This document shows positions 33 to 57,449 of a stretch of DNA of 64,000 nt, one piece after another. Within the stretch, counting starts at the first letter, position 1, and each line of letters opens with the position of its first letter. The notes under the pieces are model-generated. The model made no database searches, had not been told where the DNA came from, and saw only the letters and a list, made by a program, of their open reading frames with translations. The position numbers and the translations under genes were made by a program. Origin of the DNA: Antedon mediterranea (lineage: Eukaryota; Animalia; Echinodermata). Where the stretch lies: positions 35,151,648 to 35,215,647 of the forward strand of contig NC_092673.1 in NCBI RefSeq assembly GCF_964355755.1. Reading direction: 5' to 3'.

Positions 33-3000
33 ATGGAAGATCCTGAAGAAAAATTCCGACAATTGAAGTCAGACCTCAGTAGAGACTACGAAAATGAAAA
101 ATACAGATGGTTGAGATTCTGTCTGTTTGATTACTTATCTGTAGGGGATATCACCAATCCTCAGCTCATAGGAAATGTTCTATTCAATAAACTCCATTAT
201 GAAGGTAAAATCACAGAACAGAATGTCAACCTTCTGTTGGATATTGCTAAGTTAACACGTTTGCAGCATGCTGAACAACTAGTAATTCAGTATATAAAGG
301 ATAACAATATTCAAAACACTGGCAGTGGTGAAAGTTTGTCACCTTATCGAAGACGACTATTTCATGCTTTGAGAGAGAGTGAACCAAATGATTTACGAAG
401 GGTTATTTCTCACTATGAATTAAGCACTGAGATACAAAATATTTGGGATTCAGTTTTAAGATTGGAAATTGATACAAAATTAGAAGATAACCAAGAAAAA
501 ATTGAAGTGTTTGCACGTCTTCTTGGAGAACGGTCAAGGAGAGAACTAACTGGTATGCATAGTTTTCTTTTTCATTTACATCTTTTTACTTGAACATGAT
601 CAAATACACATCAATATTACACTTTGTTGTGTACTGTTCGGTAATTATAGTTGAATAATATTTTTATATTACTATTAAAAATAAAATAGAATAGAAGTAT
701 CTATTTTAATAAATTATCTTTTATTTTAAAGAAATAGCTACCTTTACATTTTTCAACTCTGCATTTAATAAAATTGCATGATAAATATTTATAATAAGAA
801 ATTGTTCTTACTTGTACTGTCCAAGATCTCCGTTGATTCATTTATTCGAAATTATGAAAAATGAATTATTACACAAATTTGGTCATCCTCATGATGAATC
901 AAATTTAACAATAAAGTTGTATGAATGTTAAATCCAATCAAATTGTATGCTTTGGTTCATTCTGCATACTATACTATTGTAAAACATTGCCATACAAATC
1001 TTATTATAAAACTATACTTAGCAACTTGTTAGACCTTATTTAAATGATGGTGTCTCTGCTCATGCCTTTAAAGAATATATATAGATGCTTTCAAATCTGT
1101 CCAAAGAAGAATCACATGTATCTGTCTCCCGAATCCGCTGGTAGCATTACTTACTAGTAAAAAGCTAAAATGTCAAATCTTATGTTCATATCTTATGTTC
1201 ATATCTTATGTCCATATCTTATGTTCATATCTTATGTTCATATCTTATGTTCATATCTTATGTTCATATCTTATGTCCATATCTTATGTCCATATCTTAT
1301 GTCCATATCTTATGTTCATATATTATGTTCATATATTATGTTCATATATTATGTTCATATCTTATGTTCATATATTATGTTCATATCTTATGTTCATATC
1401 TTATGTTCATATATTATGTTCATATATTATGTTCATATCTTATGTTCATATATTATGTTCATATCTTATGTTCATATATTATGTTCATATATTATGTTCA
1501 TATCTTATGTTCATAAATAATCTTATTATTTTTCTTTGTATTACCTTTGTAAATGTTTGTCACAAAATATGTGATGTCTTCAAATTTATTTACTCAGGCA
1601 TATAGTGACCATCTTAACTTAAGTAATAATTTTGTGTGTAGGCCTACTGATTGTTTTCATAATTCTTTTCTTGGACATTTTAGAAATCTACCTGTGGATC
1701 ACAGGATTTAAGTTTGATTTAACATAATTTAGTAAACGTTAAATTTTCAGCTTGAGGGTAAATTTGTATCCATTTTTATAATTATATTGAATTTTAATCT
1801 TTTAACCGTAAATACATTTTAATATGTGTATTTCAATGTAGAGAGCCGCTCACCAGTTATTTCTTTTAAAACAGTTAGGTATAATCCTGCCTGATTATTT
1901 TACATTTTGGTCTGTTTTTGTCAGGCAAATATGATATGATAAATGACAACATTTATTTCAATTCAATTCAATTCAATTCAATAATACATTTATTTAAGAT
2001 GGTCACAATATATAACAAACAATATTACAATAAACAATCATAAACAATTAATATAAGACCATCTTAGGGATCAAAATTAGAAGTAGAACTTGTCTCACAT
2101 TGACCCCTAAAATAATAATAATAATTCAAACAAAAATAAGAACGGTACCGTATAAATATACAAATACAACGCATACAATTAAATAAATTATACAGTGCGC
2201 AACATATTTAGTAGGTTTGGTAACAAGATAAATAAAGGATTTTTATATGCTTTCTAAATGAATTTACAGTATATAAATGATTGATGGCAGTTGAATCTAG
2301 ATTATTCCAATACGTTGGTCCTAAATAAGTAATAAAAAACTGGCTTTTTCTAAGTTTAACAAATGGAACATACAATTTATGTGGATTTCTTATGTTATAG
2401 GTATGATCTAATAAACGATTTGAAAATAACATTGAAACAGACTTTGGTAGTAAACCAGTAACATATTCAAACATAAAAGAAGTAACTTGAAGTTTATGAA
2501 GGTCATATATTTTTAAAATTTTAAGTTTTTTAAACAAAGGTTCTGATGCAGATGTAGATTGTTCAAAGTTTAATAATCGAACAACACGTTTTTGTAAAAT
2601 GAAAATTCTATGTAAATTTGATGGATAATCAGCTGCCCATATAATATTGCAATAAAGTAAATGTGGTAATATAAGCGAATTATACAAAGAAAGTAAAATG
2701 TGTTGAGGAAAAAAATATTTTATCTGGTTTATAACACCAATGCATTTAGACATTTTGATTGAAATATTTTTCTGATGACCGGTCCAATTTAAGTTTTCAT
2801 TAATTAAAATTCCAAGAAATAAAGTTTCGCTTTTTCGGTCCAGATTTTTACCATTTAGAACAACCTGAATGTTTTTGTTACTTAATTTATGCCTGTTTCG
2901 ATGGGAGTGAAATATAATGAAATTTGTTTTTGAAGTATTAATCAATAATTTATTAGAAGAGAACCAATTTTCAATCTTATTTAATTCTAAATTAAAGGTA

Positions 3001-6000
3001 TTTACTAATAAATCAATATTTTTGTTTGAATAAAATAAAGTTGTATCATCGGCAAAGGAAACAATATTCAGTGTATCACTAACAAAGGTTATGTCATTTA
3101 CGTAAATAAGAAATAATAAGGGTCCAAGGACCGACCCCTGTGGTACACCACATGGAACGTTCTTTGCCGATGATTTACAGTTACCAATCTGTACATATTG
3201 TTTACGATTACTAAGATAACTAATAAACCATTTTAACGAAACACCTCTAATGCCATAACGTAACAGTTTTGAAAGTAAAATATCATGATTAACAACATCA
3301 AAAGCTTTGGATAGATCAAGAAAAGTGCTTAACAAAAATTCTTTATTTTCAAATGCATTATTAATTGAATGTATAAGTTCAAGCATAGCGTAACAGGTAG
3401 AGTGTTTTTTACGAAAACCATATTGATGATTATTTAGGATGTTATGTTTAGTTAAATATGTATAAAGACGAGTATGCATTAATTTTTCTATTATTTTTGA
3501 GAGAATGGGGAGAACGGAAATCGGTCTATAATTGTTAAGTAAGTTTGCATTTCCCTTTTTAAAAACTGGGACCACTTTAGCTAATTTTATATGATCAGGT
3601 ACGATTCCTGTAGTAAAAGATAAATTGATAACATAAGTAAGAGGAATTAAAATAAAAGGAGTAATTTTTTTAAGAACAGAAGGTGTAAGGGAGTCGTGTC
3701 CTGATCCTTTATTAGAGTCTAGACTGTTGATCATGTTCAACACTTCATTTTCAGTGACTGGGTTAATAAAAAATGAATTAATGGGTGGGGGTGGTAAATT
3801 CGACATTGGATCAATATTATTATCTGGGATGGAGTTGAGCGTTTTTAAACCGATTTCTGAAAAATATTTGTTAAAGTGATCACATATAGAGTTAGTATCA
3901 TAAATAAATTCATCCCCAATTTTCAAGACTGAGGGATTTTTATTATTTTTTCTAGCTGGATTTAAAATAGAATTGATCACACCCCAATTAATCATTTTCA
4001 CAATCTAAGACAGAATTGTAGTAGTTTCCATTATTATGTATAAAGACTGATTGTTCAGTTTAAATTGACTTAATTGTTGAATAAAATAGTCAATCTTTTA
4101 ACTCAAGAAATATTCCCCCTTTTTCCTCGTAAACATTCATTCATTTGTATTACTTTTTAAAATATCCATGCTATTGTGTATCTTTTTGTTTATGGAAAAA
4201 GTTTTATTTTAGAAATAGTATCTTGTATAAACATAGAAACAAGATAAACAAGAAGCAAGCATAAATAGGTATATAGAACAGAATTACACAAGATATTCAA
4301 TGAAAAAATCTAAAACATTTTTTTACAGAGTGTGTCATTTAAGTGTTTTTTTTTCTTCTATAGATGTTGAAACAAATGAAACAATAATAGAGCCTTCCAC
4401 TTCTAACTTTGAAGGAAACCTATCGTCAACAGATAAAGGTAAATATAACAAAATTGAGAAAAATGTTTAATAAAACCTTTACACAGATCTAAGAATAAGT
4501 GAATTTGATGATACATGCCAATATTGCTTGCTGAACTACAGAATGTTAAACTACTCTTGTTGATAAAAAAAAATACTTTAATTGGTTCAATTATAGACTG
4601 GAGATGATAATATACTATGTACAGATAATGAACATAAAATAGATTGATTTGTAAACAATTTAATAGGGAGCAACCACTACAATTACATTTTTATTACATA
4701 TTTAGGTGAGCCACCTCATAAAAAGCCTCATCAATCACAAGAAACAATAAGTGAGTATAATGATAAAGAATAATTTTATTTTGTATGTTGTCATAGTCTA
4801 ATTTGAAGTCATGAAGTACAGTAGAACCCTTTTGGACCCAACAAATTGTCCCCATAATAGCAGGGGTTGTTCTAGGGGTTTTATTGTAGTCTATTTTGGC
4901 GCTGAAATTTTTTTTACCAGCAAAAAATGATTCTACTATTCAATACCTTCAAAAAGGCCTAAAATGATTCAATTCCCAGGTGAAAATTCCAGTTGAGACC
5001 AGTTGGAAATTCCAATTGGTCCAACTGGTATTCAACTGGTTCAACTGGTTTTCAATTGGTTCAACTGATTTCCAATTGGTTCAACTGGTTTTCCAACTGG
5101 TCAGCTGCTTTTTCCAACTGGTTTTCAACTGGTCCAACTGGTTGGTTCTTCCAACTGGTTTTCTCAACTGGTAAGCTGGTTTTCCAACTGGTTTTCAATT
5201 GGTCCAACTGGTTGGTTATTCCAAGTGGTTTTTTTTTCCATCACGTCAACTGGTTTTCCCAACTGGTCTCCAGCTGGTTTTTTTCCCCATCAGGTCAACT
5301 GGTTTTTTCAAGCACAACTCAGTATATGATGTCCAATGGCTTTTTCCAACTGGTTGTTTTATTAACTGGTCCAAAACAGGTTTTGCAACCAGGTAAATTG
5401 GTATTGGCTTTTATAACCAGGGGGACCCTCTTCCGGGAGGAAGGATGTGATGTGAGCTAGCGTGCATAGTCCCATAATGACTTATGACAAACCAAGAATT
5501 GCCTCATTTGGTTTCTGTGACATAATTAGCTGCAACTCAGATTGTGTCTACCTTCAACTGTGCTGATTGTATCATCACAATGACCAATACGTTTCGTTCC
5601 TACACCCCATGATCTAGGAAATTTATTTGTAATTTAGGCCTTGGCCCCTTAACATAACAAAATAACATTTTAAGAGAACGGAAAGTAAATCACATCTTCT
5701 TGAATATGCTAAATAAAAATACAAATTAGACATTCTTTTCTTCCTGTTCATGTGAACCAAAAGTTAATAAATTATGTGATGGTTTTTCCCGTTTAGACAA
5801 TTCCAAACAAAATTAATCTATAAACCAAAAGTTTATCAGAAAAGAATGATTTATTGACAAAATTAAAAAATTACATAAACATTGCTAGCTAAAACATGAG
5901 ACATACACATTTTTAAAAATGTTTTATTTATTTGAGGTGCTGGCATGTCAAAACTAATGGCTATATTAACAAATTGTTTTGGTATTTTTTAACAGTTAAA

Positions 6001-9000
6001 AAGTATCTGATTGAAAAACAAAAAGAATTATATAAAGATTTTAACAAATTGGAGACAGCAGTTCTTGAGGACCTCAATATTGAAGAGTTATTCACTGATC
6101 TCAAGTTAGTTCAATCAAGTAAGAAAGAGAATAAAGCAGAATCTAGAAACCAGAAAAGAGGCCAACATGACCAGAAAGAAAAAATACCTAAAACATTGGG
6201 GGAGATATTGGAGGTTATAAAAACTAGAAATGCTCGTAAAATCATATTTACAGGTAAAGGGGGGATGGGAAAGACAACCCTTCTTAGATATATTGCTTAT
6301 AACTGGGCTATATGTAAAAATAATACATTTGATGACAAAATAGTGTTTCTAGTAAATATCAGGGACTTGCAGCCTAAAAAAGGAATCTTAGATGCCATTA
6401 TTAGTAATATGTATTATGTTCCAACGTTCACTATTTATATGGATACATACAATGATGAAGAATCTAAAAAATTGATTAAAAACTTCATAATAAAGAATGG
6501 GAATGAAATAGTTGTACTATTAGATGGATTAGATGAGTTGCAGCAAGGTGTCGAGGATCCTATAGTTTTATTTACAAATACAGATTTTAAAAATGTCACG
6601 CTAATAACATCGCGACCTGAAAACACTACAAAATTTGTTGATAAATCCGATGTACATGTGGAGGTAAATGGATTCAGTGAAACAAGTATAAAGAACTACA
6701 TTAATAGATATTTTGCTAATAATAAGGATTTAGGGGAATGGCTATTCTATACATTAAGACATAATTCACACACACAAGTATTTGAAATGTGTTCGTCTCC
6801 TTTGGTATTACTTATGATTTGCAACATATGGGAAGAATCCGGAAACCTTCCGGATGACTTATCAGATCTTTTCCGAGAACTAATTTGTTGCACTTTAAAT
6901 CAACATTTATCTAAGCTAAATTGTGTGGAAAACAAATCTAAAATTGCAACTTTTGATAGAATTCCAGCTGAATATAAAACTGCAATACTAGCATTAGGTC
7001 AATGGATCTATGAAGGACTAAAGAAAAACATATTGATAATTGACAAGTACGATTTCAACAAAATTTGTAAGAATAAATCAATTGTAGAATTAGCACTAAA
7101 TATTGGATTTGTTTACAAAGAGCAATCTCTTAGTAAAAGTGATAAAATGAAAATGTTTGCTCCACCACACAAGTTAGTTTCAGAGGCATTAGCTGGGTTT
7201 TACCTTGCTGAAAAGTGTCAGTCAGGTGATTTGAAGGAGGAGGAGTGTGACATGATAATATCTAATGAATATCTACATATGACAACCATATTCACTATAG
7301 GATTCCTAGGTGTTGATGCTGGTAAATTTATGAAACATTGGTTGAGAGTGAAAGCTTCCAACTTGTATTCACTAGCAAAGTATTTCAAATATGTAAAGGC
7401 AGAACATGAACAGTCTGTAATAGAAGAATTAGATACAAAAATATCAAGTGATGAAGTACTTAAAGAAACATGTTTAGAAATGTCTGAGTCATATAGATAT
7501 TTGCTATCTATTGACATTGATGGTAAACCAAAAAATGAACATTTGGTACAACTTATGAGCAGATTTGATGATATGGATATCCATTTTGTCAAATTAAAAG
7601 AAAAAACAAAAGTCATTAAACCTACAAACAAATATGCTATGCTAGTTCATATCTATATAATCATAAATGGACTAATAAGTGATGATATAGACCTACAATA
7701 TGATATGTGTGACCATTATGAAAATCTATTACAGTCATTGGTAGAAGACAATGGGATTGATATCCTTTCAGTTTTAATGGACAATTTTGAATTAAAATAT
7801 GACTTTAAAATGGTTTATGTTGAGGAATTAATTAGCCCCAATTTGTTTATTCATTTGTTAAAATATTCACCTAACCTGAAGAGTTTGGAATTTGAAACTG
7901 CCACTGTAACTGGTGATACATTAAATCAAGTTTTGGTTGACAATATTTTACCACCTGATCTAAATATTTATCTTGAAAAGAATGATTTAAGTGATATCGA
8001 TGGTCTTTCACTCTCTAAGATGGTGAATCTAATTCGATATGATTCAGAAATGCTGGACGCTCAAGAAGAATCTTTCATATTTACTACTTTTCACCTGTCA
8101 GTTGATAACCTGAAAAGTCTTATAGATGCCTGTTGTGAAAATGATAGGAAATTAACATGGAATTGGTTGGACTTAAGTGGAGTTAACCTATCTTCAATTG
8201 AAGGATCAAAATTAGCTTGTTTATTCAAATTCTCTCCAGAATTATCTATCCTTGATATGAGTAATTGCCATCTCTCAGGAAGTATTATTATAGATTTTGT
8301 TGAGGAATGTGATGAAAACAATGTGGTATTGCAATCTAAATTTATTACTCTAACAGGTAACAATCTGTCAGATGGTTTTTTACTTGATAAATTGTTAAGT
8401 GCTAAATGGTGTGATTACAGTCTGACACTTGATAACCTGACAATTCTAATAGATAACTGTTATGAACATGGTAGAATATTGACTATGAGGTATTTAGATT
8501 TAAGTGGACTTAACCTAGCTTTAATTGGCGGATCAAAGTTAGCTTGTTTATTAAAATTCTCTCCACAACTAGGACGTCTTAATATGAGTAATTGCAATCT
8601 TTCAGGTAGTATTATTAAAGATTTATTGAATGAATGTGATGAAAACAATGTTGTATTGAAACATGGCATGTTTAATCTACGAGGAAACAATCTTTCAGAT
8701 ATTGATGGTGTTTTTAGGTTGGTGGAACTAATTAATCAAAACACTTTTGAATGGAAAGATTATAGCATGTCAGTTGATAACCTAAGAGGTCTTATAGATG
8801 CCTGTTATGAACATGGTAAAATATTGACATGGGAAAAGTTGAATTTAAAAGGGATTAATTTAGCTTCAATTGAAGGATCAAAATTAGCTTGTTTATTAAA
8901 ATTCTCTCCACAACTACAACTTCTTAGTATGAGTAATTGCAATCTCGCAGCTAGTTTTATAACAAATTTGTTTGCTGAATGTGATAAAAACAATGTGGTA

Positions 9001-12000
9001 TTGAAACCTGGCATGCTTGATCTAATGGGTAACAATCTTTCAGATATTGATGGTGTTTCACTTTTTAGGATGGTGAACCTAATTTATATAAAAGAAAATA
9101 CATTTGTATGGTGTAATTATAGCCTGTCAGTTGATCACCTGAAATTTCTTGTAAATACCTATAAAGAACATTGTAGGATATTGACATGGAGAAAGTTGAA
9201 TTTAATTGGACTTAACCTATCTTCAATTGAAGGATCAACATTAGCTTGTTTATTGAAATTCTGTCCACAACTACAACATCTTGATATGAGTAATTGTCAT
9301 CTCTCAGGTAGTATTATTAGAGATTTATTGAATGAATGTGATAAAAACAATGTGGTATTGAAACCCAACATGCTTGCTCTACAGGGAAACAATCTTTCAG
9401 GTATTGATGGCCATTCACTTTGTAGGTTGGTGGACCTAATTTATCTACAGCGATACAATGGCATTTTTAATTGGTATGATTATAGCCTGTCAGGTGATAA
9501 CTTGAAAAGTCTTGTAGATACCTGTAATGAACTATGTAGGAATTTGACATGGAAGAGTTTGGACTTAAGTGGACTTAACTTAGCTTCAATTGGCGGACCA
9601 ACATTAGCTTGTTTAATAAAATTGTCTCCACACCTACAACTTCTTAGTATGTGCAATTGCAATCTCTCAGGTAGTATTATAACACATTTGTTTGATGAAT
9701 GTGATAAAAACAATGTGGTATTGAAACCTGGCATGCTGGATCTAAAGGGAAATAATATTTCAGATATTGATGGTGTTACACTTTTTAGGTTGGTGGAACT
9801 AATTTATATGAAAGAAAATACATTTGTATGGTGTAATTATAGCCTGTCAGTTGATCACCTGAAATGCCTTGTAAATACCTATAATGAACATTGTAGGATA
9901 TTAACATGGAGAAAGTTGAATTTAAGTGGATTTAACCTATTTTCAATTGGCGGATCAACATTAGCTTGTTTATTAAAATTCTCTCCACAACTACAACTTC
10001 TTAGTATGAGTAATTGCAATCTCTCAGCTAGTTTTATAACAAATTTGTTTGATGAATGTGATAAAAACAATGTGGTATTGAAACCTGGCATGCTGGATCT
10101 AAAGGGAAATAATATTTCAGATATTGATGGTGTTACACTTTTTAGGTTGGTGGACCTAATTTATCTGCCGTATTATCACTACGAGAAGGGAAGGTTTAAT
10201 TGGCATGATTATAGCCTGTCAGGTGATAACTTGAAAAGTCTTGTAGATGCCTGTAATGAACTATGTAGGAATTTGACATGGAGGAGGTTGAATTTAAGTG
10301 GACTTAACTTAGCTTCAATTGGAGGATCAAAATTAGCTTGTTTATTAAAATTCTCTCCACAACTACAATATCTTAATATGAGTAATTGTCATCTCTCTGG
10401 TAGTATTATCAAAGATTTATTAAGAGAATGTGATAAAAACAATGTGGTATTGAAACATGGCATGCTTGATCTATATGGAAACAATCTTTCAGATATTGAT
10501 GGTGTTTCACTTTTTAGGTTGGTGGAACTAATTAATCAAAACACTTTTGAATGGGATGATTATAGCCTGTCAGTTGATCAGCTCAAAAGTCTTGTAGATG
10601 CCTGTTTTGAACATGGTAGAATATTGACTATGAGCAAATTAGATTTAAGTGGACTTAACCTAGCTTCAATTGGAGGATCAAAATTAGCTTGTTTATTAAA
10701 ATTCTCTCCACAACTACAATATCTTAATATGAGTAATTGTCATCTCTCTGGTAGTATTATCAAAGATTTATTAAGAGAATGTGATAAAAACAATGTGGTA
10801 TTGAAACATGGCATGCTTGATCTATATGGAAACAATCTTTCAGATATTGATGGTCTTTCACTCTCTAAACTAATTCAATATGATTCAGATTTAATGGACG
10901 TTGCAGAAGATTGTTTTACTACTTTTCACCTGTCAGTTGAAAACCTAATAGGTCTTGCAGATGCATGTTATGAACATGATAGGATATTGACATGGAAACG
11001 GTTTAATTTAAGTGGGATTAACTTAGCTTCAATTGCAGGATCAAAAATAGCTTGTTTATTAAAATTCTCTCCACAACTAAATTTTCTTGATATGAGTAAT
11101 TGCCATCTCTCAGATACTATTATTAAAGATTTTTTTAATGAATGTCATAAAAACAATGTAGTATTGAAATCTAAATTTATTACTCTAACAGGTAACAATC
11201 TGTCAGATGGTGTTTTACTTATTAAATTGTTAAATTCTGAATGGTGTGATTACAGTCTGACACTTGATAACCTGACAATTCTAATAGATGCCTGTTATGA
11301 ACATGGTAGAATATTGACTATGAGCGAATTAGATTTAAGTGGACTTAACCTAGCTTCAATTGAAGGATCAAAATTAGCTTGTTTAATTAAATTCTCTCCA
11401 CAACTAGTAGAGCTTTATATGAGTAATTGCCATCTCTCAGGTAGTATTATAAAAGATTTATTGTATGAATGTGATGAAAACAATGTTGTATTGAAACCTG
11501 GCATGCTTGATCTAGAGAAAAACAATCTTTCAGATATTGATGGTGTTTCACTTGCCAGGTTGGTGAACCATTTAATGGTTTACACTTTTGCATGGTGTGA
11601 TTACAGCCTGTCAGTTGACAACTTAAGAGGTCTTGCAGATGCCTGTGAACATGGTAGGATGTTGACATGGAAAGTGTTGAAATTAAGTGGAATTAACCTA
11701 TCTTCAATTAGAGGATCAAAATTAGCTTGTTTATTAAAATTCTCTCCACAAATACGACGTCTTGATATGAGTAATTGCCATCTCTCAGGTAGTATTATAA
11801 AAGATTTATTGAATGAATGTGATGAAAATGGTGTGGTATTGAAACCTGGCATGCTTGATCTAAAGGGAAACAATCTTTTAGATATTGATGGTGGTACACT
11901 TATTAAGTTGGTCTTCCTAAATTGTTTAGATGATTATATTGTTAATTGGGGTTATTGCCTGTCAGTTGATCACCTGAAAAGTCTTGTAGACATGTGTAAA

Positions 12001-12627
12001 GGTAGGATATTAACATGGAGACGGTTGAATTTAAGTGGGCTTAATCTAGCTTTAATTGGTGGATCAACATTAGGTTATTTATTAAAATTCTCTCCACAAC
12101 TACAACATCTTGATATGATTAATTGCAATCTCTCTGGTACTATTATACAAGATTTATTGAATGAATGTGATAAAAACAATGTGGTATTGAAACCTGGTAT
12201 TCTTGATCTAAGGGGAAACAAACTTTCAGATATTGATGGCCTTTCAATTTTTAAGTTGTTGATTTGTATGAATTATGACATTTTTAAAGGGCATGATTAT
12301 GGCCTGTCAGTTAATAACCTACAAGAACTTGTAGATGTCTGTAAGGTTAATAATAGCAAGTTGACGTGGAGTGATTTAGATTTAAGTGGACTTAATCTTG
12401 TAGTATCCATTTTAGCTGATTTAATACAATTCTCTCCATTTCTGGAACATCTCAGTTTAGAAAATTGCAATATTTCAGGTGGTATGATAATGTCTGTATT
12501 GAATGAATGTGAACAAAATGGAGTAGTATTGAAAAAAGAAATGCTGAATCTGATGGGCAATGACCTTTCAGACATCACAGATGAAACATCAGTTGCTAAA
12601 TTAAACTGGATCCTTAGTAAATCCTAA
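33..12627 (+). CDS. NLR-family receptor: tandem DED-like N-terminus, NACHT NTPase, very long LRR array (~2423 aa, 4 coding exons)
   Basis: Exons 33-552, 4364-4438, 4706-4750, 5996-12627; all introns GT-AG and phase 1, summing to 7272 nt in frame. Walker A GKGGMGKTT, Walker B VVLLDGLDE, sensor LITSRP, SPLVLLMIC, winged-helix FAPPHKLVSEALAGFY. LRR motifs LDLSGLNL/LNMSNCNL/LDLKGNNL. An acceptor at 16-17 with an open in-frame 18-32 means further upstream exons are possible. Confidence 0.92.
1177..1514. repeat. 13-bp minisatellite (TTATGTTCATATC)n, ~26 copies, NLR intron 1
   Basis: Directly visible period of 13; it explains the three overlapping MFISYVHILCSY ORFs. Confidence 0.95.
1957..4000 (-). 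mobile_element. 5'-truncated non-LTR retrotransposon (CR1/L2-group LINE), antisense in NLR intron 1, with an uninterrupted RT ORF
   Basis: ORF 2208-4001 has NYRPIS, QYGFR, FLDLSKAFD, GVPQGSVLGPLLF and FADD. The 3' UTR has a stem-loop (2064-2110), AATAAA and a (TTGAA)n tail at ~1957-1981. No endonuclease domain; no clear TSD. Confidence 0.93.
4975..5422. repeat. Degenerate (CAACTGGTTTTC)-type repeat array with CCCAGGT.../...ACCAGGG ends; possible non-autonomous DNA transposon
   Basis: ~30 copies of a CAACTGGT-like core, an inverted copy (ACCAGTTG) near the left end, and imperfect terminal inverted repeats. Confidence 0.55.
8100..12600 (+). repeat. Coding tandem array of ~13 super-repeats (~330-370 bp, 4 LRRs each) within the NLR terminal exon
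   Basis: The KFSP/KFCP/KLSP/QFSP anchor recurs 13 times. DNA is near-identical between units, e.g. 10310-10503 = 10661-10854. Confidence 0.93.
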
Positions 12628-13450
12628 TTGGTTTTATCTAAACTTGGATGTAGACATTTTGGGAAACGGAACAAAAATCAAATGAGTTGATTAACATAAA
12701 CCCTTTTTCTTCATCAATCACTGTCAAGTAATTTATATTCTTTGTTTTACTTACATAAACTATACAAGGTTAAATACAATGAAATATATTTCATAATCTT
12801 ACTACTTAAATATAAATAAATAAATATATATTGTGATACAGTTTGAAAGACATCACATTTTTTATTTAAATATGAACGATCTATAAGCACTGCAAAACTT
12901 TTAAGTTCTTAATCCCTGGTTGCATTCGGCTAAGATTTATCATAAATCATTCTTATGTGTTTTACTTAGTGAAGACAATATCATGAAGGATGATGTGGGA
13001 CAGATGATTGTGTATTGTCCGTGTGGAGGGGAGAAATGGAGTTATTTAATGAGTTTTATAAAATCTTTATGATAGATGCTAAATAATCCTAGAATACTAC
13101 AGTATAAATTTACAATTAGATTTAGGATGAGGAGACATTCTGTACATCTCTGTCACCACAACTACATATTCAAATTTGCATGATTTATGTGATATGGATT
13201 TAAAACGGGATATTTGTGTCTATTCCATGCCTGGTTACCTGAATAACCGAAATTAGCTCACTCCTACGAAGTGGGGGACAATATGAAAACAAGTATTTTT
13301 ATTGGAACACCCCTACATATCCATGGAACCATCTCCATGTATTAGTGTTACAATCATTTCTTTGTGTATTGTTGTTGAGTAAAGTACGAAAACAAAAGAA
13401 CAAACTAATTCAGAGAATTCTACATCTGAAATTAAGTTGTTGTTTATTAC

Positions 13451-14693: not shown

Positions 14694-16155
14694 ATATACG
14701 GTATCTATCATACAGTACAACATAAATAATTCTATACAATAATAATAGACCTTACATGACAATCTAAATAAGTCATAGATAAAACAATACAATATAAATA
14801 ATTCTTGGTTCAAAATAATTACAACTATAATAATAATAAGATAAGTCTCAATTGCTTACCAAAGATAGGCCTGGATAACATGTGCAGCTATAGCTATACA
14901 CTATATCAATTACTACTGTACTACAGCTTTAGGCTTCTAAGTAAGCCTTGGTACATCTACCACTTCTATAGCTAGGCCAGCTTAGGCTTCTAAGTAAGCC
15001 TTGGTACATCTACCACTTCTATAGCTAGGCCAGCTTAGGCTTCTAAATAAGCCTTTTGTGATTGCTAGGTCCTTACCCAACAAGCCTAACTATCCAACTG
15101 CCACCCACAGCCCAAGCAAGCTATGCCCTCATTAGCATAACCCATATGGTTGGTCACCTGTTCACTTGACACCCTTCAGTGAACACAAGCACAGTATACC
15201 TAGCTTGGATTTGGCACTTACATACCCACCCACAATTGCGCATTGCACAATTTTACATACAAATACAATGAAAGTGTAAAATCCAGGCCTATAACACTAA
15301 TTATCCATCAACTTATTAACTATAATGTTAAACAACAATGTATATAAGTAGCGACAAAAATAAAGTTAAATACAAAGTTCATTTAAAGTTTCTTAAGTTT
15401 TCTCAGCTTCCTTCTTTGTTTTGTTCAATTCAGAATAATATAGGATTTACTTTTCCGGATCATCATTCTCCAACAGCAAACATAGTTTACTCACAGGCCT
15501 CGTCAGGATACTTGCATGTGTCTTTACCTTTACTTGCCGAACAAACCCATCCTTGTTTGGTAATGTCTCCACAACTTTACCCATTGGCCACATTTCTTGG
15601 GGTTTTCTCACTTATCAGTAAAACAATATCTCCAATTTTAGCATTTCTTCTTGGAGATAACCACTTTTGTCTTCTTTGTAAAAGCGGAAGATATTCACTT
15701 TTCCATCTCTCCCAGAAACGATCAGCCAAATATTGAGCTTGTTTCCATCTTCTCCGGAAGTAATTGGATTTATTCTCAGAATTACAAGGTGGTAGATTTA
15801 CATCACCCTTTAGAAGTATGAGTTGGTTAGGTGTGAGCGGTTTAAGATCGTTAACATCCTCCTGATTGCTTGTTATTGGCCTATTGTTGACAATGTTTTC
15901 CACTTCACAAATGAATGTATGCAAGGTATCATCTGTTAACGTCTGACTTTGGACTAATGCATATAATATCTGCCGTATAGTTCTGATTTGACGTTCCCAT
16001 ATCCCACCATGATGGGATCCGGTGGGTGGATTAAATACCCAGTCTATATCCTTTTGCAGCAAAGTTTCATAAATTCTGGCTTGGTTCCACGCCTTAATTT
16101 CCTTACTCATCTCTCGGCATGCTCCAACGAGGTTTGTACCATTGTCAGACCTAAT
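14694..16155 (-). mobile_element. Partial duplicate of the BEL/Pao element 3' end (integrase C-terminus, PPT, truncated 3' LTR)
   Basis: Matches 18221-19682 (offset 3527) with only 2 substitutions noticed. Flanked by 98-bp direct repeats at 14590-14687 and 16154-16251. Confidence 0.93.
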
Positions 16156-16469
16156 ATGTTAAAATGTACTTATAAATAATGACTACAGTACAAAGACTTG
16201 ATTAACTTTTTATGACATTGTCAAAATGATTATATTGCGGTTACTGCATTAACCATATTTGTTACTGCAATAATGTATGATGATTTTAGTTTGTTTCAAT
16301 GTAAAAGTTTGAAACAATCAATGCTATAATATATATGATTAGTCAAAACAAGTATAAATATTGGATAACCCTGTTTAAAAGAGTAAAGAAATTGTAGTTA
16401 CTGAAGTAACTGCAGTTGAATCAATTTGACATGTTCCCTTACGAAATTGATTGTTATAATTATTATTAT

Positions 16470-16657
16470 CTATCGTTATTATCATCGTTTTAACATCTTT
16501 ATTATCATCGTTCTAATTTCTTCATTATCATCGTTTTAACATCTTTATTGTCGTTTTAACATCTTTAATTTCATCGTTTTATTATCATCGTTTTAACATC
16601 TTCATTATCATCGTTTTAACATCTTTAATTTCATCGTTTTAACATCTTCATTATCAT
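16470..16657. repeat. Left arm of a 23-bp minisatellite (AACATCTTCATTATCATCGTTTN) split by a LINE insertion
   Basis: Same unit as 29188-30300. Confidence 0.88.
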
Positions 16658-18129
16658 TTTATTTTATTTTTTATTTTTTTTTGTTTTTTATTTTATTTTA
16701 TTTTATTCAATTTCCAGGTAACATACAAAAATCATAAACAAGGTACGACATTATTCAACCAAACAGAACAAAAGTACTATCAGCACCTGCGGGTAACCAA
16801 AAGTGGATCAGTTCAAAAGAACTGCACTGTCGAGTGGCTTTCCCAACTAATAGTACGAAAAACGCAATAGACATAAAAACACAGTGATAGTCTAGATAAA
16901 TTCGATATCAGTAATACATTTTTTCAAATCCCTTCTAAACCCCCCAAAGTTAAACAGGACTTTGTTACGAACTTCATGCGGGATACATTCCCATATTCGA
17001 GGGAAATTAACAAACAGGGAGTATTTAAATGCATTAGTTCTAGCATACATGTGTTTAAAGGTGAGGGACTCTGGATACCGAGAATTAATTGTAAGGTATT
17101 CAAAAATATCACAATCAATTAAATTATGCAAACACTTAACTACAAAAATTATACTATGAAATTTCATTCTTTGAACCATATCTGGTAAATTTAGTATCTT
17201 AAGCCTGTCAGTGAAATCGCCTTCAACACACAATTTAGTAACCCGTCTTAATGACTTGTTAATAGCTATATTATGTTGTTTTTGATGTGGATCCCACACA
17301 GGAGCACCATATTCAATAACAGGTCGACATAGTGCATTAAAAAGTCGTAGTAAAATTTCGGTGTCATTGAAACCTACAAACCGTTTGATAAACCCAAGCA
17401 TTCTCATAGATTTCATCGATACATCATTAACGTGAGCAGACCATGTTAAATCACGTGAGAAGTTAATACCAAGATATTTATGTGAATTAACAGCTTCAAG
17501 GGGATTGGATTCGATTGTATAAATAAAATGAGGGATATAATTACGTTTCCTAGTTATGTGCATGACTTTACACTTCTTTGCATTTAATTTCATTTTATTA
17601 TCCTCACACCATTTGGAAATTTTACAAAGATCCTGTTGTAAGGTAAGTGCATCATGACGACTGAATACAAGTTTATAAATTACTGTATCGTCTGCATACT
17701 GCTTCATAACAGAAGAGGTATTTAGAGGTAGGTCATAAACAAAGAGATTAAATAGAAGCGGGCCTAACACTGATCCCTGAGGAACACCCGAGCCCACTCT
17801 ATCCCAATCAGAATGCTCCTTATTAAGGACAACACGTTGGAATCTGTCACTGAGAAAGGAGTGAAGACACTTTAGGAGAGATCCACATACTCCCATGTTG
17901 TGCAGTTTCTTGATTACTAAATCATGGGGAACACGGTCAAAGGCCTTCTCCCAATCAAGGAATATTGCATCAATTACAGGAGGTTGTCTAACATCCATTG
18001 TTTGTGACCAATCATGATATAACGCTGAGGCCTGTGTAATACACGATCTACCTGGATAAAACCCGTGTTGCGTGGGACTTATAAATCCAAAAAATTGAAG
18101 ATGAAAAAGAATGTTTTATCTGCTATAAC

Positions 18130-18749
18130 TGCACAAACAAGTTTCTTGCAAATGCGGAATTTAATTGTTCTCCGACTTGATCCGATTTACTATAACAAAT
18201 AAATAATGATTACAAATAATATATACGGTATCTATCATACAGTACAACATAAATAATTCTATACAATAATAATAGACCTTACATGACAATCTAAATAAGT
18301 CATAGATAAAACAATACAATATAAATAATTCTTGGTTCAAAATAATTACAACTATAATAATAATAAGATAAGTCTCAATTGCTTACCAAAGATAGGCCTG
18401 GATAACATGTGCAGCTATAGCTATACACTATATCAATTACTACTGTACTACAGCTTTAGGCTTCTAAGTAAGCCTTGGTACATCTACCACTTCTATAGCT
18501 AGGCCAGCTTAGGCTTCTAAGTAAGCCTTGGTACATCTACCACTTCTATAGCTAGGCCAGCTTAGGCTTCTAAATAAGCCTTTTGTGATTGCTAGGTCCT
18601 TACCCAACAAGCCTAACTATCCAACTGCCACCCACAGCCCAAGCAAGCTATGCCCTCATTAGCATAACCCATATGGTTGGTCACCTGTTCACTTGACACC
18701 CTTCAGTGAACACAAGCACAGTATACCTAGCTTGGATTTGGCACTTACA
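18130..18749 (-). repeat. BEL/Pao 3' LTR
   Basis: TG start at 18749, CA at 18130. About 99% identical to 25581-26203 (~6 substitutions and one 3-bp indel seen). Internal ~53-bp tandem duplication. Confidence 0.94.
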
Positions 18750-21700
18750 TACCCACCCACAATTGCGCATTGCACAATTTTACATACAAATACAATGAAA
18801 GTGTAAAATCCAGGCCTATAACACTAATTATCCATCAACTTATTAACTATAATGTTAAACAACAATGTATATAAGTAGCGACAAAAATAAAGTTAAATAC
18901 AAAGTTCATTTAAAGTTTCTTAAGTTTTCTCAGCTTCCTTCTTTGTTTTGTTCAATTCAGAATAATATAGGATTTACTTTTCCGGATCATCATTCTCCAA
19001 CAGCAAACATAGTTTACTCACAGGCCTCGTCAGGATACTTGCATGTGTCTTTACCTTTACTTGCCGAACAAACCCATCCTTGTTTGGTAATGTCTCCACA
19101 ACTTTACCCATCGGCCACATTTCTTGGGGTTTTCTCACTTATCAGTAAAACAATATCTCCAATTTTAGCATTTCTTCTTGGAGATAACCACTTTTGTCTT
19201 CTTTGTAAAAGCGGAAGATATTCACTTTTCCATCTCTCCCAGAAACGATCAGCCAAATATTGAGCTTGTTTCCATCTTCTCCGGAAGTAATTGGATTTAT
19301 TCTCAGAATTACAAGGTGGTAGATTTACATCACCCTTTAGAAGTATGAGTTGGTTAGGTGTGAGCGGTTTAAGATCGTTAACATCCTCCTGATTGCTTGT
19401 TATTGGCCTATTGTTGACAATGTTTTCCACTTCACAAATGAATGTATGCAAGGTATCATCTGTTAACGTCTGACTTTGGACTAATGCATATATTATCTGC
19501 CGTATAGTTCTGATTTGACGTTCCCATATCCCACCATGATGGGATCCGGTGGGTGGATTAAATACCCAGTCTATATCCTTTTGCAGCAAAGTTTCATAAA
19601 TTCTGGCTTGGTTCCACGCCTTAATTTCCTTACTCATCTCTCGGCATGCTCCAACGAGGTTTGTACCATTGTCAGACCTAATTTGCTTCACTGGTCCTCG
19701 TCTAGCTGTAAATCGTCTTATGGCGTTTATACAGGCGTTTGTATCCAGGGAACTAGCTATTTCAATATGAATTGCCTTAGAGGACAGACACACAAATACC
19801 ACACCATATTTTTTGACAGTGCTTCGTCTTTGCTTGACTTCAATTGGTCCAAAAAAGTCCATGCCTACTCTAGTAAATGCAGCTTGGCCTGATGTCACTC
19901 TATCAGCAGGTAGATTTGCCATCATTTGTTCCATTGTTTTCCCACGATATTTTCTGCATTGTACACACCTGTTAGTAATCTTACGAGCTAATGCGTTGGC
20001 GCCTATTACCCAATATTTTTCCCGAAGTACAGATAACATCATATTTCGGCCACTGTGCCCACTTCTTCTATGAATGTCATCAAGCATTAAACTACCAACA
20101 AGTGATTGTTTGGGAATGATGATTGGGTGCTTTGCATTTGTCGAGATGTCTGCCAGATTCAGGCGTCCACCAACATTTAGAACCCCTTCGTTTAACCATG
20201 GATCCAGTCTCTACAAAGGGCTGGATCTTGAAACTATCATTGTGTTACTTTCTGTACCTCTCTGCAGAACTTCCATCTCTTCGGAATAAAACTTTCTTTG
20301 AACGTGTTTCACAATCAACATTTCCGCTTCATGAAGGTCACGAACAGTTAACCTGTGGGATCCGCTTGTGTGTGATCGAGTAGCGCCTCTTATTTTCCTC
20401 AGCAATACACCTTTCACCTTTAAAATATATGCAACTGCCTTCTTAAGCGAGTGCCAAGATGAATAGTGTTCAACTAGTATACACACTGGATGATTAATAT
20501 CATTAACCTGAGTAGAGTGGCTTGCTTTTACCTCACAATCTCTTGAATCCTCTTTCATTGATATTATTTGCTGAGGCCATTTACCTTCATCTTCCAATAG
20601 AAACCTTGGACCTTGAAGCCATACTGGATCCGAAAGAAATTGTTTAGGATTCTGTCCTCTTGACGCAACATCTGCCGGATTTTGTTTGGTATCAACAAAC
20701 TTCCATTGGTTTATACTAGTTGCACTCCTTATGATGGTTACTCTGTTGGACACAAAGGTATGAAAGCGTGAGGACTCATTAGCTATGTATCTCAGCACTG
20801 AGGTACTATCTGTCCAGTAGAAGGTTTGGTGGAGTTTGATATCCAACTCTCGGAGAACAACGGCACAGATTTTGACTGACATAGTTGCTGCTGTTAGTTC
20901 CATTCTCGGGATAGTTACTTTCTTTATAGGAGCCACGCGAGCTTTCCCTGTTACGAAAGAACATCTAATTTTTCCCTGCTCACTTATTTGCCTAAGATAG
21001 ATCACACAACCATAACCTTCGGCACTGGCGTCAGAAAATGCATGGACTTGAGTATTGACGAAATGTGAATTGCTTCCTGGTACGTAACATCTAGGTACAG
21101 TTACGGATTCAATGAGACAAATTTGCTTACACCAATTCTGCCACTTCATCGCATGCTCGTCCGGTATACGTTCATCCCATCCTAACTTTAGTTTACATAA
21201 ATCTTGAAGTAGGTTCTTTGCCGACACGCTGACAGGCGCAACAAACCCTAAGGGGTCATAAATAGTGCTAACAGCAGATAAGATTGCTCTTCTTGTGTTT
21301 TCTGCTTTAAACTTGCCAATACTAAAACCGAACAAGTCATTGTCCACATCCCATTGAAGCCTAGTGCTCGTTCTTTTGGTAGCGGAGAATGGTCAAGATC
21401 CAAGTTCATTACTCCTTTGGTCCGGTCTTCGACTGGAATTTGCGATAGAATATATTTGTTGGTGCAGACCCATTTTGTAAGGTTGAATCCGCCTTTTTGA
21501 CATAAGTTCTTCAACTCTTGAATTAAACCGAGTGCCTTTTGTGTAGACTCGACTGATCGCAAACAGTCATCCATGTAGAAATCATTTAGTACAGTTGATA
21601 CTGCCGCTTTACTATGTAATTTCTGGTTGTCTTTGGCTGTTTGTTGCAATGCAAAATTAGCGTAAGACGGAGATGACGTGGCTCCGAACAGATGGACAGT

Positions 21701-23378
21701 CATCCTGTACTTGATAGGAGTTGCTTCTAGATCGCCACCTGGCCACCAAAAGAAGCGAAAAAGATTGCGATGCTTTTTAGGAACTTTTACTTGGTAGAAC
21801 ATGGTCTCGATATCACTCATAAAAGCTACAGGATGCTGACGAAATCTAAGTAGAATACCATTTAAATTGTTGAGCAAATTAGGACCGCATAAAAGAAGAT
21901 CATTCAACGCAACACCAAGATACCGAGCGGCACAATCGAACACAACCCGTATCTTCGTGGGTTTTTTCGGGTGATAGACACCATGATGAGGGATATACCA
22001 CGTTAAACCATCTTGCGATTCATAAGGTGAAACCTCTTCCGCATAACCCTGGTCTATAACGCTAGTCATAAATTTAACATAATCCTGTATCTTTAATTTC
22101 TTGTCTCTTAAAGGAAGCTCCATCTGATAGTGACCGTCAACAAAGTTACAGCTATCAGCCATTATTTTAATAAATCGTTTATCTTCTTGTGACCACTCTC
22201 TTTTATCGTCTATAACTCTTTCCGGAAAATCGTATTTTAAACTTTCTCTGTATGTTCTCTCTAGACTTTCTGACTCGTCATGTTTAGATATAGCCACATT
22301 GATGAAACTTGAGTTGACATTTGTAGTATTACCAATCCGAATGACATTCCAAGGAATCCAGCCCAAAGCAGTCTTGGTAGCATGAGGAGAGCTTGGTGGA
22401 CCCGTTCTAATATCTGATGGGGTGTACGCATCCGGGACATTATTTCCAATAAGAAGATCTATGGTTGCGTTTGATGAAAGCTGGTGCAGTTTAACATCAT
22501 GTAAATGACCCCATTGTTCTATATCTTTCATTGTTGGAATGTGTTCGATTTTAACAGGTATTTTGTCTTTGTTGTAGACAGCGGGCATACGAATGCTACT
22601 GTTACCTTCAATATCCGAAACAATTAGACCATCTACAGTACAGGTTTCAACAAGTTGAGAATTTAACATAGTATCTAAGGTTATAGATCTTTTCTTGCCT
22701 TGCACACCTAATTCTGTCATCAACCTTTGGCTACAGAAAGATACATTACTTCCTGGATCGAGGAAAGCATAACACAGAGTACATTTCCAACCTACACACA
22801 CTTTAACAGCTATCACAGCAAGCGTGCATTCTAATTTTCCTTCAGAGGTTACACAGCTACTACCATCAGTGACAGATATTGGTACAGCATGTTTAGGTGC
22901 CGTAGACGTTAATACTGCGGGAAGCCTTTGGTTTTACCATATATTACCTCTCTATTGTCATAATGCAACAATGTGTTGTGGGTACCTCTACATTTCGAAC
23001 ATGTGATGCCGGATGAACACCATCTCTTTGTATGACCTTTACCAAGACACAGAAAACAGACATTTTTTCTCTTTAGCATCTCAAACCGTTCTTGAATAGC
23101 CATCCTTTTCATTTCTGAGCATTGAGCGACTGAATGTGGCCTTTCACAACACAAACACTTCTCCACTTGCTTTACATTTACTGCAGACACCTTAGAAGAC
23201 TCCTTGAACTTGTTGCCTCTAGCATCAAGTTGAAGTTTGCCATACACGGGATCATTAGACTTTTTGGCTTCTTTTCGTACAAATTCAACAAGGTCACTAA
23301 ATTTTACTCGTTCGTGCTTGGCCTTCAAGTCATACACCTTTCCTCGCCATCTTTCCTGCAAGTTGTAGGGTAGCTTAG

Positions 23379-24024
23379 TGTAATATAACGATATACTTTT
23401 ATATTTAAGAAATTGACCTTTGTATCAGAATTTAAATAAGTTCACAAACTTGACCCAGAAAGTCCAGAGGAGAGTTTGTCCAGATGTTTTAATGACCATT
23501 TAGTTTATAATAGAATTCCTAAAGAAAACACTTAGCTTAATTTTGTGACTGTTCCCATCGTAAAACAATTAGATATTGACAGTTTTAAGCAGAGATTCGA
23601 CAGGGCCAATTCATCATTGTAACCTCCCCAGATAAGATCAATCATTCCCACTTAAACACCCCTGGATCAACTTAGGACCAATCATTAGCTCCATAAATGA
23701 TGTAATGACATTATGCAAATGAACCGGAGCCAATATACTCCCAAGTTTCAGAAGGGCCCAGACACACCTCACAGCCACTTCTTCAGAAGAACATCTACAC
23801 CTCACAGCCACTTCTTCAGAAGAACATCTACACCTCACAGCCACTTCTTCAGAAGCAGACCTACACACTTCACACCTCACCGACAGCATCATTGATCCTC
23901 CGTTCTTTATCTATAGTTATAGTTGTATATTGTACTGAAGTATTAAACTGAATAAACAAAATGTGTTACGACAGTCAAGCGAGTAAGAGTCTTCATTAGT
24001 ACAACAACGCAACATTATATTACA
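23379..24024 (+). mobile_element. Solo LTR (probably Gypsy-type) inserted in BEL gag
   Basis: TGTAATATAA...TTATATTACA inverted termini, 4-bp TSD TTAG (23375-23378 / 24025-24028), AATAAA at 23951, internal 33-bp x3 repeat. Removing it restores gag in frame (IVT-KLPYNLQERW). Confidence 0.9.
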
Positions 24025-25580
24025 TTAGTAACAATAGTTTTAAGATTCTCAAAAAATTCAAGCACAGCCAAACTGCCCACACACTGCGTAGCTGCCTCAC
24101 ACTCTTTCAGGAAAATAGCAAAATCATCCAAGGATTTGGAATCTGAAGAACGAAGAACAGGCCATGAATACAGCTTCTTAACAAATGCGTTGGCTATCAC
24201 TTCAGGATCACCATAACGTTCTGTCAATTCTTTGATTGCCGATGGGTACCCTGTGTCTGCGTCTAGGTAAGAAAATCCTTTAACTATGCGATGGGCCTCT
24301 CCAGTTGTAAATTGTTCCAGGTACTGCAATTTCTCATCTGCTGAACAAAACTGTTCCACTCTAGACTTAAATTGTCTTATAAAACGTTTGAATTCCAAGG
24401 ATTCACCTGCAAATTTCTTAATTTCCATTTGTGGCTTCCGCATAGTCCTTATCACCTCGTTCATATCAGTAGAACCAACATTTCTATTAGAAGAAAAAGA
24501 ATCCTGACAACCCGGTTTTGCGGAAACAGATGACTTTGCGTAACAGGAACTACCACAGGAGTCACTGTGTTCGAAGCTAAGTTAGGAATTGTAGTAGGAG
24601 CAGGATCTGCTTGAGCAAAGTTTTGGGTTGCCAGTACGTTTACGGGAACAGCAGGTACTACCACAGGAGCAACTGACGTTAGCACAGGAATTGTAACATG
24701 ATCGGCTGGAGCAAAGGCTTGTGTTACATCACCAGGAACAACAGGGACTACAACAGGATCCAATGGGTCTAAATCTAATACAGGAATAGTAGCAGGATCC
24801 GCTGGACCAAACGATAACACATTTCGTCGGTATGCACTATCTAGAAACCCTTCCATTGATGACGTACTTTTGTGGCTACCAGAACCACTTCCGCTTGCGA
24901 AATCCCTTGCAACATTCAATCTTGCTTCGGCGACGTCTATCTCTTCTTTTAAAGCGTTTTCTTCTTTTAACTGTTTGAGTTTGAACTCTTCCTGTTTCAG
25001 TTTGAACTCTTCTTGTTTCAGTTTGAACTCTTCCTGTTGAATTCTCTGCTTTTCTGTGAGACTCCTCTGCCTGGCTAGCAACTCTGCATGTTTTTGCTCT
25101 TCTTGAATCACAGAAGCACTTAGTGATCGTTTAGAATATTTTGAACTGTTGATTTCCTGCTTGCGGAGCGATGAGAATTTACCGCCGCAGACCGCTCTAC
25201 CTCAAGCACCGCAAACCAATCCTCTACTTTAGCCTTTAAGTTTGCCAACCACACATCTTTGTCTTCAAACCATTCATTATACATTATTTTCTCTTCCTCG
25301 TTCAGCAAGCCACAAATTTCATCATGAAGGAACATAAATTCACCATACACCATTAACCAATCTTGATGCACCTTAATCAGATTTTCTCTTGTAACTTCCT
25401 TATTCAAAGAAGCTTTCAACGCTTCTGACACAAATTTAACACGACGCCACAACTCTTTGATTCCTTTCAGCTTTCGTTCCTTTTCATACTCTGCACCCTT
25501 CTCGGTCTTGCGTTTTACTCTAACAGATTTCTCTGAAGCAGCTTCAGCCATCGTGGATATATCTTTGTAAATTTTATAAC

Positions 25581-57042: not shown

Positions 57043-57449
57043 ATCAACAGGCCTAACAAACTATATATATATGTATATATATTTCAACATTTCCATAAAT
57101 TAATAATAATATACTGATGTAATGCAATATTATGTACTGTGATTGCAGTTTGTTATAAACAAAAGAGATTCAGTATACTACTTATACTATTAATATTATG
57201 TCATAATGAAATTGAAACAAGTTATACAATTTTCAGATGCCTTGGCCTTTTTAGTGGGGTATGGAGAGGGATAGTTCAGTGAAGTTTCTTTTAAATCATG
57301 GTGTAGCTACACATATTATCTGAAATAAATAATTATTTGTTTTTAATGAAATAAAAACTAAAATTGTTTACTTTTTCTTTTATTAAAGTAAAATATGCGA
57401 CATTACATTTTATAAATATACCTGTCTGTCTCATTTAATTTACTCTGCG

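Follow-up and report, generated by a model that had tools for sequence, protein, structure and literature searches.

An NLR gene with a long leucine-rich repeat array

The analysed stretch of DNA (hereafter the window) comprises 64,000 nucleotides of the crinoid Antedon mediterranea (assembly GCF_964355755.1, contig NC_092673.1, forward strand, positions 35,151,648 to 35,215,647). As judged from its sequence, the locus is an open-frame crinoid gene of the nucleotide-binding and leucine-rich repeat receptor (NLR) type, with a probable death-effector N-terminus, a NACHT domain and about 54 leucine-rich repeats (LRRs). These repeats form a tandem array of four-LRR units, in which codons of the strand positions predicted to line the concave face are under positive selection.

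An unbroken frame (5917-12627, + strand) holds the NACHT domain followed by the LRR array. An earlier note on this sequence had described the gene as intronless, with the NACHT domain and all repeats in one exon of about 6.6 kb. The single large exon was recovered, whereas the gene as a whole is not intronless in our predicted model: three upstream exons join exon 4 in frame through three phase-1 GT-AG introns, giving 2,423 codons with zero internal stops (Table 1). The motifs that we take to be Walker A (starting at 6253), Walker B and sensor-1 were intact, and the earliest Met of exon 4 falls within Walker A. The product of exon 3 is similar to the linker found immediately 5' of the NACHT exon in the crinoid relative P0001. 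No RNA data set was listed for exon 4, and none of the joints of the gene model was present among the 15 of 116 splice joints listed, which concern a stretch without exon 1; neither result has a bearing on expression.

In the Pfam analysis, NB-ARC scored 30 bits against 63 bits for NACHT, no BED match was obtained, and both LRR_4 and LRR_1 scored over their cut-offs in the C-terminal solenoid. Matches to TFX_C, CarG-like and Pox_F17 were rejected as sums of weak repeat matches. A reverse-transcriptase frame of the long interspersed nuclear element (LINE) type, recognised by eye, lies in intron 1.

Table 1. Coordinates of the NLR gene model, its repeat array and other features of the window. 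LTR: long terminal repeat; HMM: hidden Markov model.
Feature	Position	Strand	Remarks
NLR coding exon 1 (model)	33-552	+	ATG; phase-1 donor at 552
NLR coding exon 1 product	33-552	+	~173 aa, all-helical N-terminal module, probably paired death-effector-type domains
NLR coding exon 2 (model)	4364-4438	+	75 nt, linker; AG/GT flanks, phase 1-1, frame kept
NLR coding exon 3 (model)	4706-4750	+	45 nt, linker; AG/GT flanks, frame kept
NLR exon 4	5996-12627	+	6,632 nt; NACHT, complete LRR array, stop codon
NACHT NTPase domain	6238-6720	+	Pfam PF05729, 63.2 bits (cut-off 26.7), E 3.5e-17
Divergent lead unit U0	7861-8226	+	unit HMM 87.7 bits
Complete four-LRR units U1-U12	8227-12426	+	109-124 aa (~117); repeats A-B-C-D per unit
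Final half unit U13	12427-12624	+	A+B repeats; HMM positions 1-60, 55 bits
Two-unit-offset duplication	9031-10290	+	720-729 nt; also 112-nt exact repeat at offset 357
Youngest duplication/conversion	10310-10854	+	194-nt exact repeat, 10310-10503 = 10661-10854
Array-start copy (of 8086-8445)	10921-11280	+	eight-unit offset 2835 nt; 82-93% alike in 3/4 90-nt windows
LINE-like reverse-transcriptase frame (intron 1)	2208-4004	-	598 aa
LTR retrotransposon-like element	14694-26204		Pao/BEL-type gag-pol fragments (by eye); ~530-630-nt terminal repeats, 98% identical
Inner duplication of LTR element	14694-16155 = 18221-19682		1,462 nt, 99.9%
LINE fragment in LTR element	16892-18115
Minisatellite	29188-30280		23-nt unit
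FAM124-domain exon	35059-35889	+	Pfam
Minisatellite	37187-39044		89-nt unit
Minisatellite	46876-48670		69-nt unit
Minisatellite	50083-51034		70-nt unit
NELF-B/COBRA1 exons	54085-56618	+	Pfam

The repeat unit and selection at its strand positions

Units were delimited at a recurrent KFSPQ-type motif, and Tandem Repeats Finder (TRF) reported a period of 357 nt with 10.9 copies. The array had been described as about 13 cassettes of ~117 aa built from four LRR types, and this count corresponds to twelve complete units, the divergent U0 and the half unit U13; many of the relatives' arrays likewise finish in a half unit. Every strand and loop motif quoted in that description was found. Repeat C is of an atypical FxWxDY type and is preceded by a length-variable loop (the B-C loop), and the first half of the unit (A-B) is homologous to the second (C-D; hhalign probability 94.5). 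The units share 70-92% DNA identity over 107 aligned codons, loop excluded. With such identities, and with dN/dS of 0.70-0.83 outside the strand and core codons, the claim of a nearly fixed framework was overstated, and its constant look appears to reflect recent or homogenised copies, not strong conservation.

AlphaFold (AF2), run on units U2-U5 with a 19-row alignment, gave a model with a predicted local distance difference test score (pLDDT) of 90.4 and a predicted template modelling score (pTM) of 0.82, in which each unit forms four strand-plus-helix repeats. The atypical repeat, noted previously as FxWxDYSL, is predicted to fold like the other three: its strand covers consensus positions 3-5, and a short helix comes after it. 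The best fold matches were ribonuclease inhibitor and the LRRs of NLRP3 and NLRP14 (Foldseek E 2e-9), with Z of 14-15 and a root-mean-square deviation (rmsd) of 9-13 Å over 330-425 residues. The array is thus predicted to be a solenoid of the ribonuclease-inhibitor type, and the rmsd of the top matches suggests that its curvature may differ from theirs.

The 107 aligned columns were classed by the LRR consensus LxxLxLxxNxL, which we take as the rule for placing concave positions, into 18 concave x-positions, 19 core positions and 70 others. The proportion of nonsynonymous differences (pN) was 0.358 at strand x-positions, compared to 0.184 for all columns (permutation p = 5e-5) and to 0.225 for the pooled hydrophilic and concave columns (p = 5.5e-4). 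The strong variation previously noticed around the strands is therefore concentrated at strand x-positions beyond chance. The site dN/dS comparison proposed in the earlier note gave values above 1 at these positions (1.67-2.21 over all models). In an MG94-type likelihood analysis, omega (dN/dS) of the concave class was 1.82 with one tree and 2.21 with three segment trees, and a value of 1 was rejected (p = 2e-4 and 5e-6, respectively); omega was 0.42-0.44 for the core and 0.76-0.83 for the rest. Two alternative frequency models, one of them strongly AT-biased, gave concave values of 1.67-2.05 (p from 1e-3 to 3e-5), so that omega of the concave class exceeded 1 in all six fixed-class model runs.

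Site models led to the same class of positions. M2a was preferred over M1a with likelihood ratio test (LRT) values of 47.6 and 54.2, and 7/9 and 5/8 of the high-posterior M2a sites belonged to the concave class, which holds 18 of the 107 columns. The selected strand positions common to both tree settings were A2, A3, B7, C7 and D3, and the B-C loop is a further candidate region; a few helix positions also scored high. In neutral simulations that included conversion and AT bias, the like-for-like observed ratio of 2.31 was reached in none of 400 runs. At the protein level, the concave class varied more than other hydrophilic columns in all 12 proteins with at least five units, that is, the window gene and 11 relatives (each p < 0.05, uncorrected), and the B-C loop was the most variable part in 11 of them. 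These data indicate that the strand codons are under positive selection and the core under purifying selection (omega about 0.4).

An alternative is neutral turnover, in which replication and recombination errors expand and homogenise the array while unconstrained exposed strand residues drift with no diversifying selection. The background omega is indeed high (0.70-0.83), pairwise ratios are inflated about 1.3-fold under neutrality, and leftover recombination can inflate M2a tests. However, a concave omega of 1 was rejected in all six fixed-class runs, other hydrophilic columns are less variable, and the identical positions vary in 11/11 multi-unit relatives, some of which expanded separately, so that we consider purely neutral turnover to be unlikely.

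Exchange among units, crinoid relatives and read evidence

The pairwise homoplasy index (PHI) test rejected a single history for the units (p = 0.0002 at all three window sizes; 0.0003 under whole-codon permutation). In sliding windows, the best self-matches lay one unit (351/357 nt), two units (720 nt) or eight units (2835 nt) away; a strict blastn self-comparison missed the short-offset duplications. Units U7 and U8 differ at 0 of 67 variable sites before a break and at 37 of 75 after it, and U8 consists of a U7 front and a U0-type back: the second half of U0 was copied into U8, the best self-match of U0 being at offset 2835 (83%). U6 is also a mosaic, matching U3 and then U5 in its front and U4 in its back, and the end of U7 matches U9. 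U1 and U9 are mutually closest (89%); the fourth 90-nt window of the array-start copy has its best match at the two-unit offset. Switch points vary within the unit (codon columns ~36, 52-56 and 76-83), with no fixed boundary. The units had previously been called recombining, and the mosaics and the duplications at one-, two- and eight-unit offsets bear this out for past events, not as an ongoing process.

In P0002 and P0022, some units are shortened by in-frame deletion of part of a cassette. As far as can be told from these proteins, the truncated units show that A-B halves may also exchange with C-D halves, and that exchange may take place out of register.

A search with the NACHT region retrieved 51 proteins, of which the top 37 came from Antedon mediterranea and Anneissia japonica (best match P0001, 65% identity); the remaining 14 were weak, with query coverage of at most 53%. 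All matches of the two LRR-unit searches (24/24 and 1/1) were crinoid. The restriction to crinoids rests on these three word-indexed searches; in two of them, scoring was limited to the top ~7,980 candidates. A 12-unit profile detected complete four-LRR units in 27 of the 58 collected proteins (120 units, 1-14 each), the units having often multiplied inside a single gene, and fourteen other crinoid NLRs (P0024-P0037) matched mainly as ~58-aa half units. The NACHT tree (FastTree; P0018, which has no P-loop match, and three redundant coral isoforms left out) separates the four-LRR and two-LRR groups with modest support (0.77-0.88). Because the unit halves are homologous and the two groups split in this tree, the four-LRR unit probably arose by doubling and divergence of a two-LRR unit and became fixed in one crinoid subfamily.

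Within the four-LRR group, units form gene-specific clades in P0002 (12/12) and P0005 (14/14), and the three units of P0001 are the only ones with which those of the window cluster (support 0.96). Four Anneissia members (P0004, P0008, P0013 and P0016) carry, according to precomputed domains, an additional PF02338 domain, presumably an OTU-type protease, which is possibly an integrated domain or decoy. An Atlas search with P0008 returned generic LRR clusters only. A title- and abstract-level literature search, with subscription papers and supplements outside its scope, found no account of crinoid NLRs or of such a repeat regime in an animal NLR, and the four-LRR family is apparently an undescribed crinoid NLR subfamily.

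The N-terminal module has a different affinity. P0034 and P0037, both of the two-LRR group, have N-termini that share 44% and 39% identity, respectively, with the exon 1 product, compared to 23% for the N-terminus of P0001. Sub-threshold Pfam matches to the death-effector domain (DED) were obtained for P0034 (E 3.5e-5) and P0037 (E 7.9e-4), and the weaker relatives P0001 and P0003 scored 51.6 and 35.6 bits (cut-off 35.9). The window's own N-terminal sequence gave no DED match in Pfam and no useful match against sequences of the Protein Data Bank (PDB; best E 0.11), and its single-sequence fold was of low confidence (pLDDT 47.9), with no death-fold among the 50 matches listed. A death-effector-type identity of the module is thus probable by way of its relatives. 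In FastTree analyses, the N-terminus groups with P0034/P0037 (support 1.0) and the NACHT domain with P0001 (0.99). The two parts therefore have different closest relatives, which points to a likely exon-level effector swap between NLR subfamilies; given a correct gene model, the effector exon probably entered by a swap through a phase-1 intron.

Read evidence came from Logan contigs (32 of 4,461 pieces listed), which are too short to span the array. Among the matches listed, six contigs of run X1 match the locus without difference, at a depth of 23.3-25.8; this run may be the source sample and is thus not independent. The same run contains a 6.4-kb contig over the NELF-B gene, which served as depth control, at a depth of 40.1 and with scattered differences. 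In run X3, from the same sample, depth was 7-16 at the NLR locus compared to 16-38 at NELF-B, and in run X7, from a related species, contigs ~91-94% alike (gaps counted) had depths of 80-94 compared to 127-201 at NELF-B. Depths were compared over 4473-12800 (NLR) and 52200-58492 (NELF-B); contig depth is not a copy number, and base composition may contribute. That depth is roughly halved in two species is a hint that this NLR sequence may be haplotype-specific, with a possibly hemizygous or highly divergent haplotype. Haplotype-specific sequence is reported for zebrafish NLRs in the available text of PMC11192531. One X1 contig with seven differences at 9524-9775 may be an allele, a paralog or a chimeric U4/U6 path, and was not used.

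The number or order of units might in principle be an assembly artefact, given that no listed contig spans the whole array and that one exact repeat reaches 194 nt. Against this, the units are just 70-92% identical, the frame is open across 6.6 kb, arrays of up to 14 units exist in database proteins of two named crinoids, and X1 contigs match 7535-8137 and 11864-12104 without difference; such an artefact is extremely improbable.

In run X9, which is spliced at NELF-B, contigs were found that are ~86-93% alike to the NLR exon, suggesting that members of this NLR family are transcribed. These contigs also bear on the proposal that the solenoid is structural (an NLRP-like lattice scaffold or a decoy) and not a sensor, or that this copy is an unexpressed relic. 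The fold matches do include NLRPs of the oocyte lattice, a LINE-like element lies within intron 1, and LRRs need not bind microbial patterns, as stated in the available part of PMC3879445. In addition to the X9 contigs, the model of 2,423 codons without an internal stop, the intact NTPase motifs, and the combination of a core under purifying selection (omega about 0.4) with positively selected strand positions all argue against a scaffold or relic, which we regard as highly improbable.

Elsewhere in the window (Table 1), the LTR retrotransposon-like element, which contains an inner duplication and a LINE fragment, could have arisen by nested insertion or by a local duplication in the assembly. 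The four minisatellites are homogeneous (matches 87-99%), and the one with 69-nt units contains long open frames of a 23-residue repeat that are probably non-coding.

Proposed diversification of the array and comparison with known systems

We propose, with a probability of roughly 75%, that new versions of the array are made by ordinary unequal crossover and gene conversion in the germline and are then subject to diversifying selection driven by pathogens or nonself. These exchanges would take place among the units and between paralogs. Because the array has no introns and keeps a strict A-B-C-D order, exchange in register would preserve the reading frame, the packing order and the fold, and array length and surface could be reshuffled without breaking the solenoid. 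Selection would then favour novel residues in the strands and the loop, and it is through the variable strand residues and the B-C loop that a ligand would be contacted. In NLRs generally, ligand binding releases the NACHT domain for oligomerisation and death-fold modules are clustered; here, binding would likewise free the NACHT domain to oligomerise, and the putative death-fold module at the N-terminus would be clustered for signalling through caspases or adaptors.

Several observations weigh against this proposal. All comparisons involve paralogous repeats of one haplotype, not alleles, and the concave positions were placed from the LRR consensus and DSSP strands, the class being fixed after the per-column table had been seen. 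Neutral simulations gave a mean pairwise ratio of 1.33, and the lower observed value of 1.89 was reached in 9 of 400 runs. Constraint on non-strand codons is only weak (omega 0.7-0.8), and their rate in recent sister segments is above the synonymous one (1.95), a secondary count that is biased since the segments were chosen for high identity; relaxed constraint or off-strand selection therefore contributes. Only one of 66 MaxChi pairs was strong (U7/U8), and none survived Bonferroni correction for the 66 pairs (best 0.066, 1000 permutations). Across the family, 82 of 119 units have their nearest unit within their own protein, so that concerted evolution is not general, and P0006 and P0011 hold old, divergent units (56% identity within the gene). 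Homogenisation has therefore come in episodes and has not affected all genes.

A second possibility is that the units are re-assembled in immune cells by a somatic or programmed process. Lamprey variable lymphocyte receptors (VLRs) are assembled in this way, and a comparable diversification has been proposed for the sea-urchin SpTransformer genes. The modular in-frame cassettes, the mosaic units and the large genomic pool of related donors (1,299 X1 contigs matching at 85% or more) would be compatible with it. However, the gene is complete in the germline, searches of the 64 kb with tblastn, blastn and a six-frame HMM detected no spare cassette outside exon 4, the switch points are scattered as in ordinary homologous exchange, and most units differ by 10-30%, which corresponds to evolutionary divergence. 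We therefore judge somatic re-assembly to be very unlikely. Also improbable is a very fast swapping of cassettes within and between dozens of NLR genes, at each meiosis or in coelomocytes, that would give each individual or cell private arrays and would exchange N-terminal modules too. If true, it would amount to a combinatorial repertoire for intracellular nonself recognition in an invertebrate. The label of an allele-generating system, applied to the locus before, is apt for the evolutionary germline process that we favour but does not extend to a dedicated machine or a somatic one; the differences in unit number observed (1-14) are between paralogs.

With the regular 117-aa unit and the short list of selected positions, it becomes testable how intracellular receptors are varied in long-lived invertebrates, which lack antibodies, and the array may also supply a natural modular LRR scaffold. 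The expansions of invertebrate NLRs are mostly known as gene counts, with about 203 NLRs in sea urchin and further lineage-specific expansions described in the available text of PMC3879445 and PMC8913654. According to the former, NACHT and LRRs share one exon in sponge clade C NLRs and in genes of Lottia, Capitella and Nematostella, and N-terminal domain shuffling is known for invertebrate NLRs. The crinoid gene shares with these expansions the one-exon arrangement of NACHT and LRRs, a lineage-specific expansion, likely also the shuffling of N-terminal domains and, given its probable death-effector N-terminus, the death-fold/NACHT/LRR layout. In contrast to the crinoid array, no homogenised higher-order LRR unit or repeat-level selection is described in the available parts of these two sources.

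The array shares its predicted fold with the alternating solenoid of ribonuclease inhibitor and the NLRPs, whose two-repeat periodicity is seen in the sister crinoid subfamily (~58 aa), but it differs by its four-repeat period, an FxWxDY repeat without the usual Asn/Cys, a variable loop and ~54 repeats. Exon-shuffled repeat receptors of the Ectocarpus type also combine repeat shuffling with diversifying selection in candidate immune receptors, with one repeat per exon, whereas all crinoid repeats lie in one exon. Lamprey VLRs are built of LRR modules with a variable concave face and their somatic assembly draws on an incomplete gene together with cassettes that flank it. The variable-concave-face modules are common to both systems; the comparison with VLRs drawn in the earlier note does not extend further, since the crinoid gene is complete in the germline and apparently intracellular, and no unit match lies outside exon 4 within 64 kb.

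The parallels drawn before with plant NLRs and fungal HET proteins are more apt. In the rice Xa1/Xa14 CTR-NLRs, as described in the accessible part of PMC7748011, the LRR domain likewise consists of long tandem blocks (93 aa in rice, ~117 aa in the crinoid) flanked by distinct initial and terminal LRRs, and block number is 4-6 among alleles and 1-9 among homologs, compared to 1-14 in the crinoid family. Rice Xa1 has a BED-NB architecture, is restricted to grasses, and has near-perfect repeats and a known effector trigger, whereas the crinoid gene combines a NACHT domain with ribonuclease-inhibitor-type LRRs, in units that are 70-92% identical. The fungal NLRs with high internal conservation (Podospora HNWD het-d/het-e, and ANK and TPR types), as far as PMC4986451 was available, resemble the crinoid gene in being NACHT/NB-ARC receptors whose repeats are conserved, evolve in concert and are positively selected on the concave or binding face, and whose N-terminal modules reassort. 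They carry WD, ANK or TPR repeats and no LRRs, in contrast to the four-LRR higher-order block of the crinoid gene, which is thus not a member of that group; repeat number is polymorphic between alleles in fungi, and the differences observed in the crinoid family are between paralogs. The crinoid gene is a metazoan NLR that, by analogy, would work like the fungal and rice repeat NLRs while being a member of neither. The mechanism of repeat shuffling plus selection is itself not new, although apparently undescribed for an animal NLR, and this crinoid subfamily would exemplify among animal NLRs what is known from fungi and rice.

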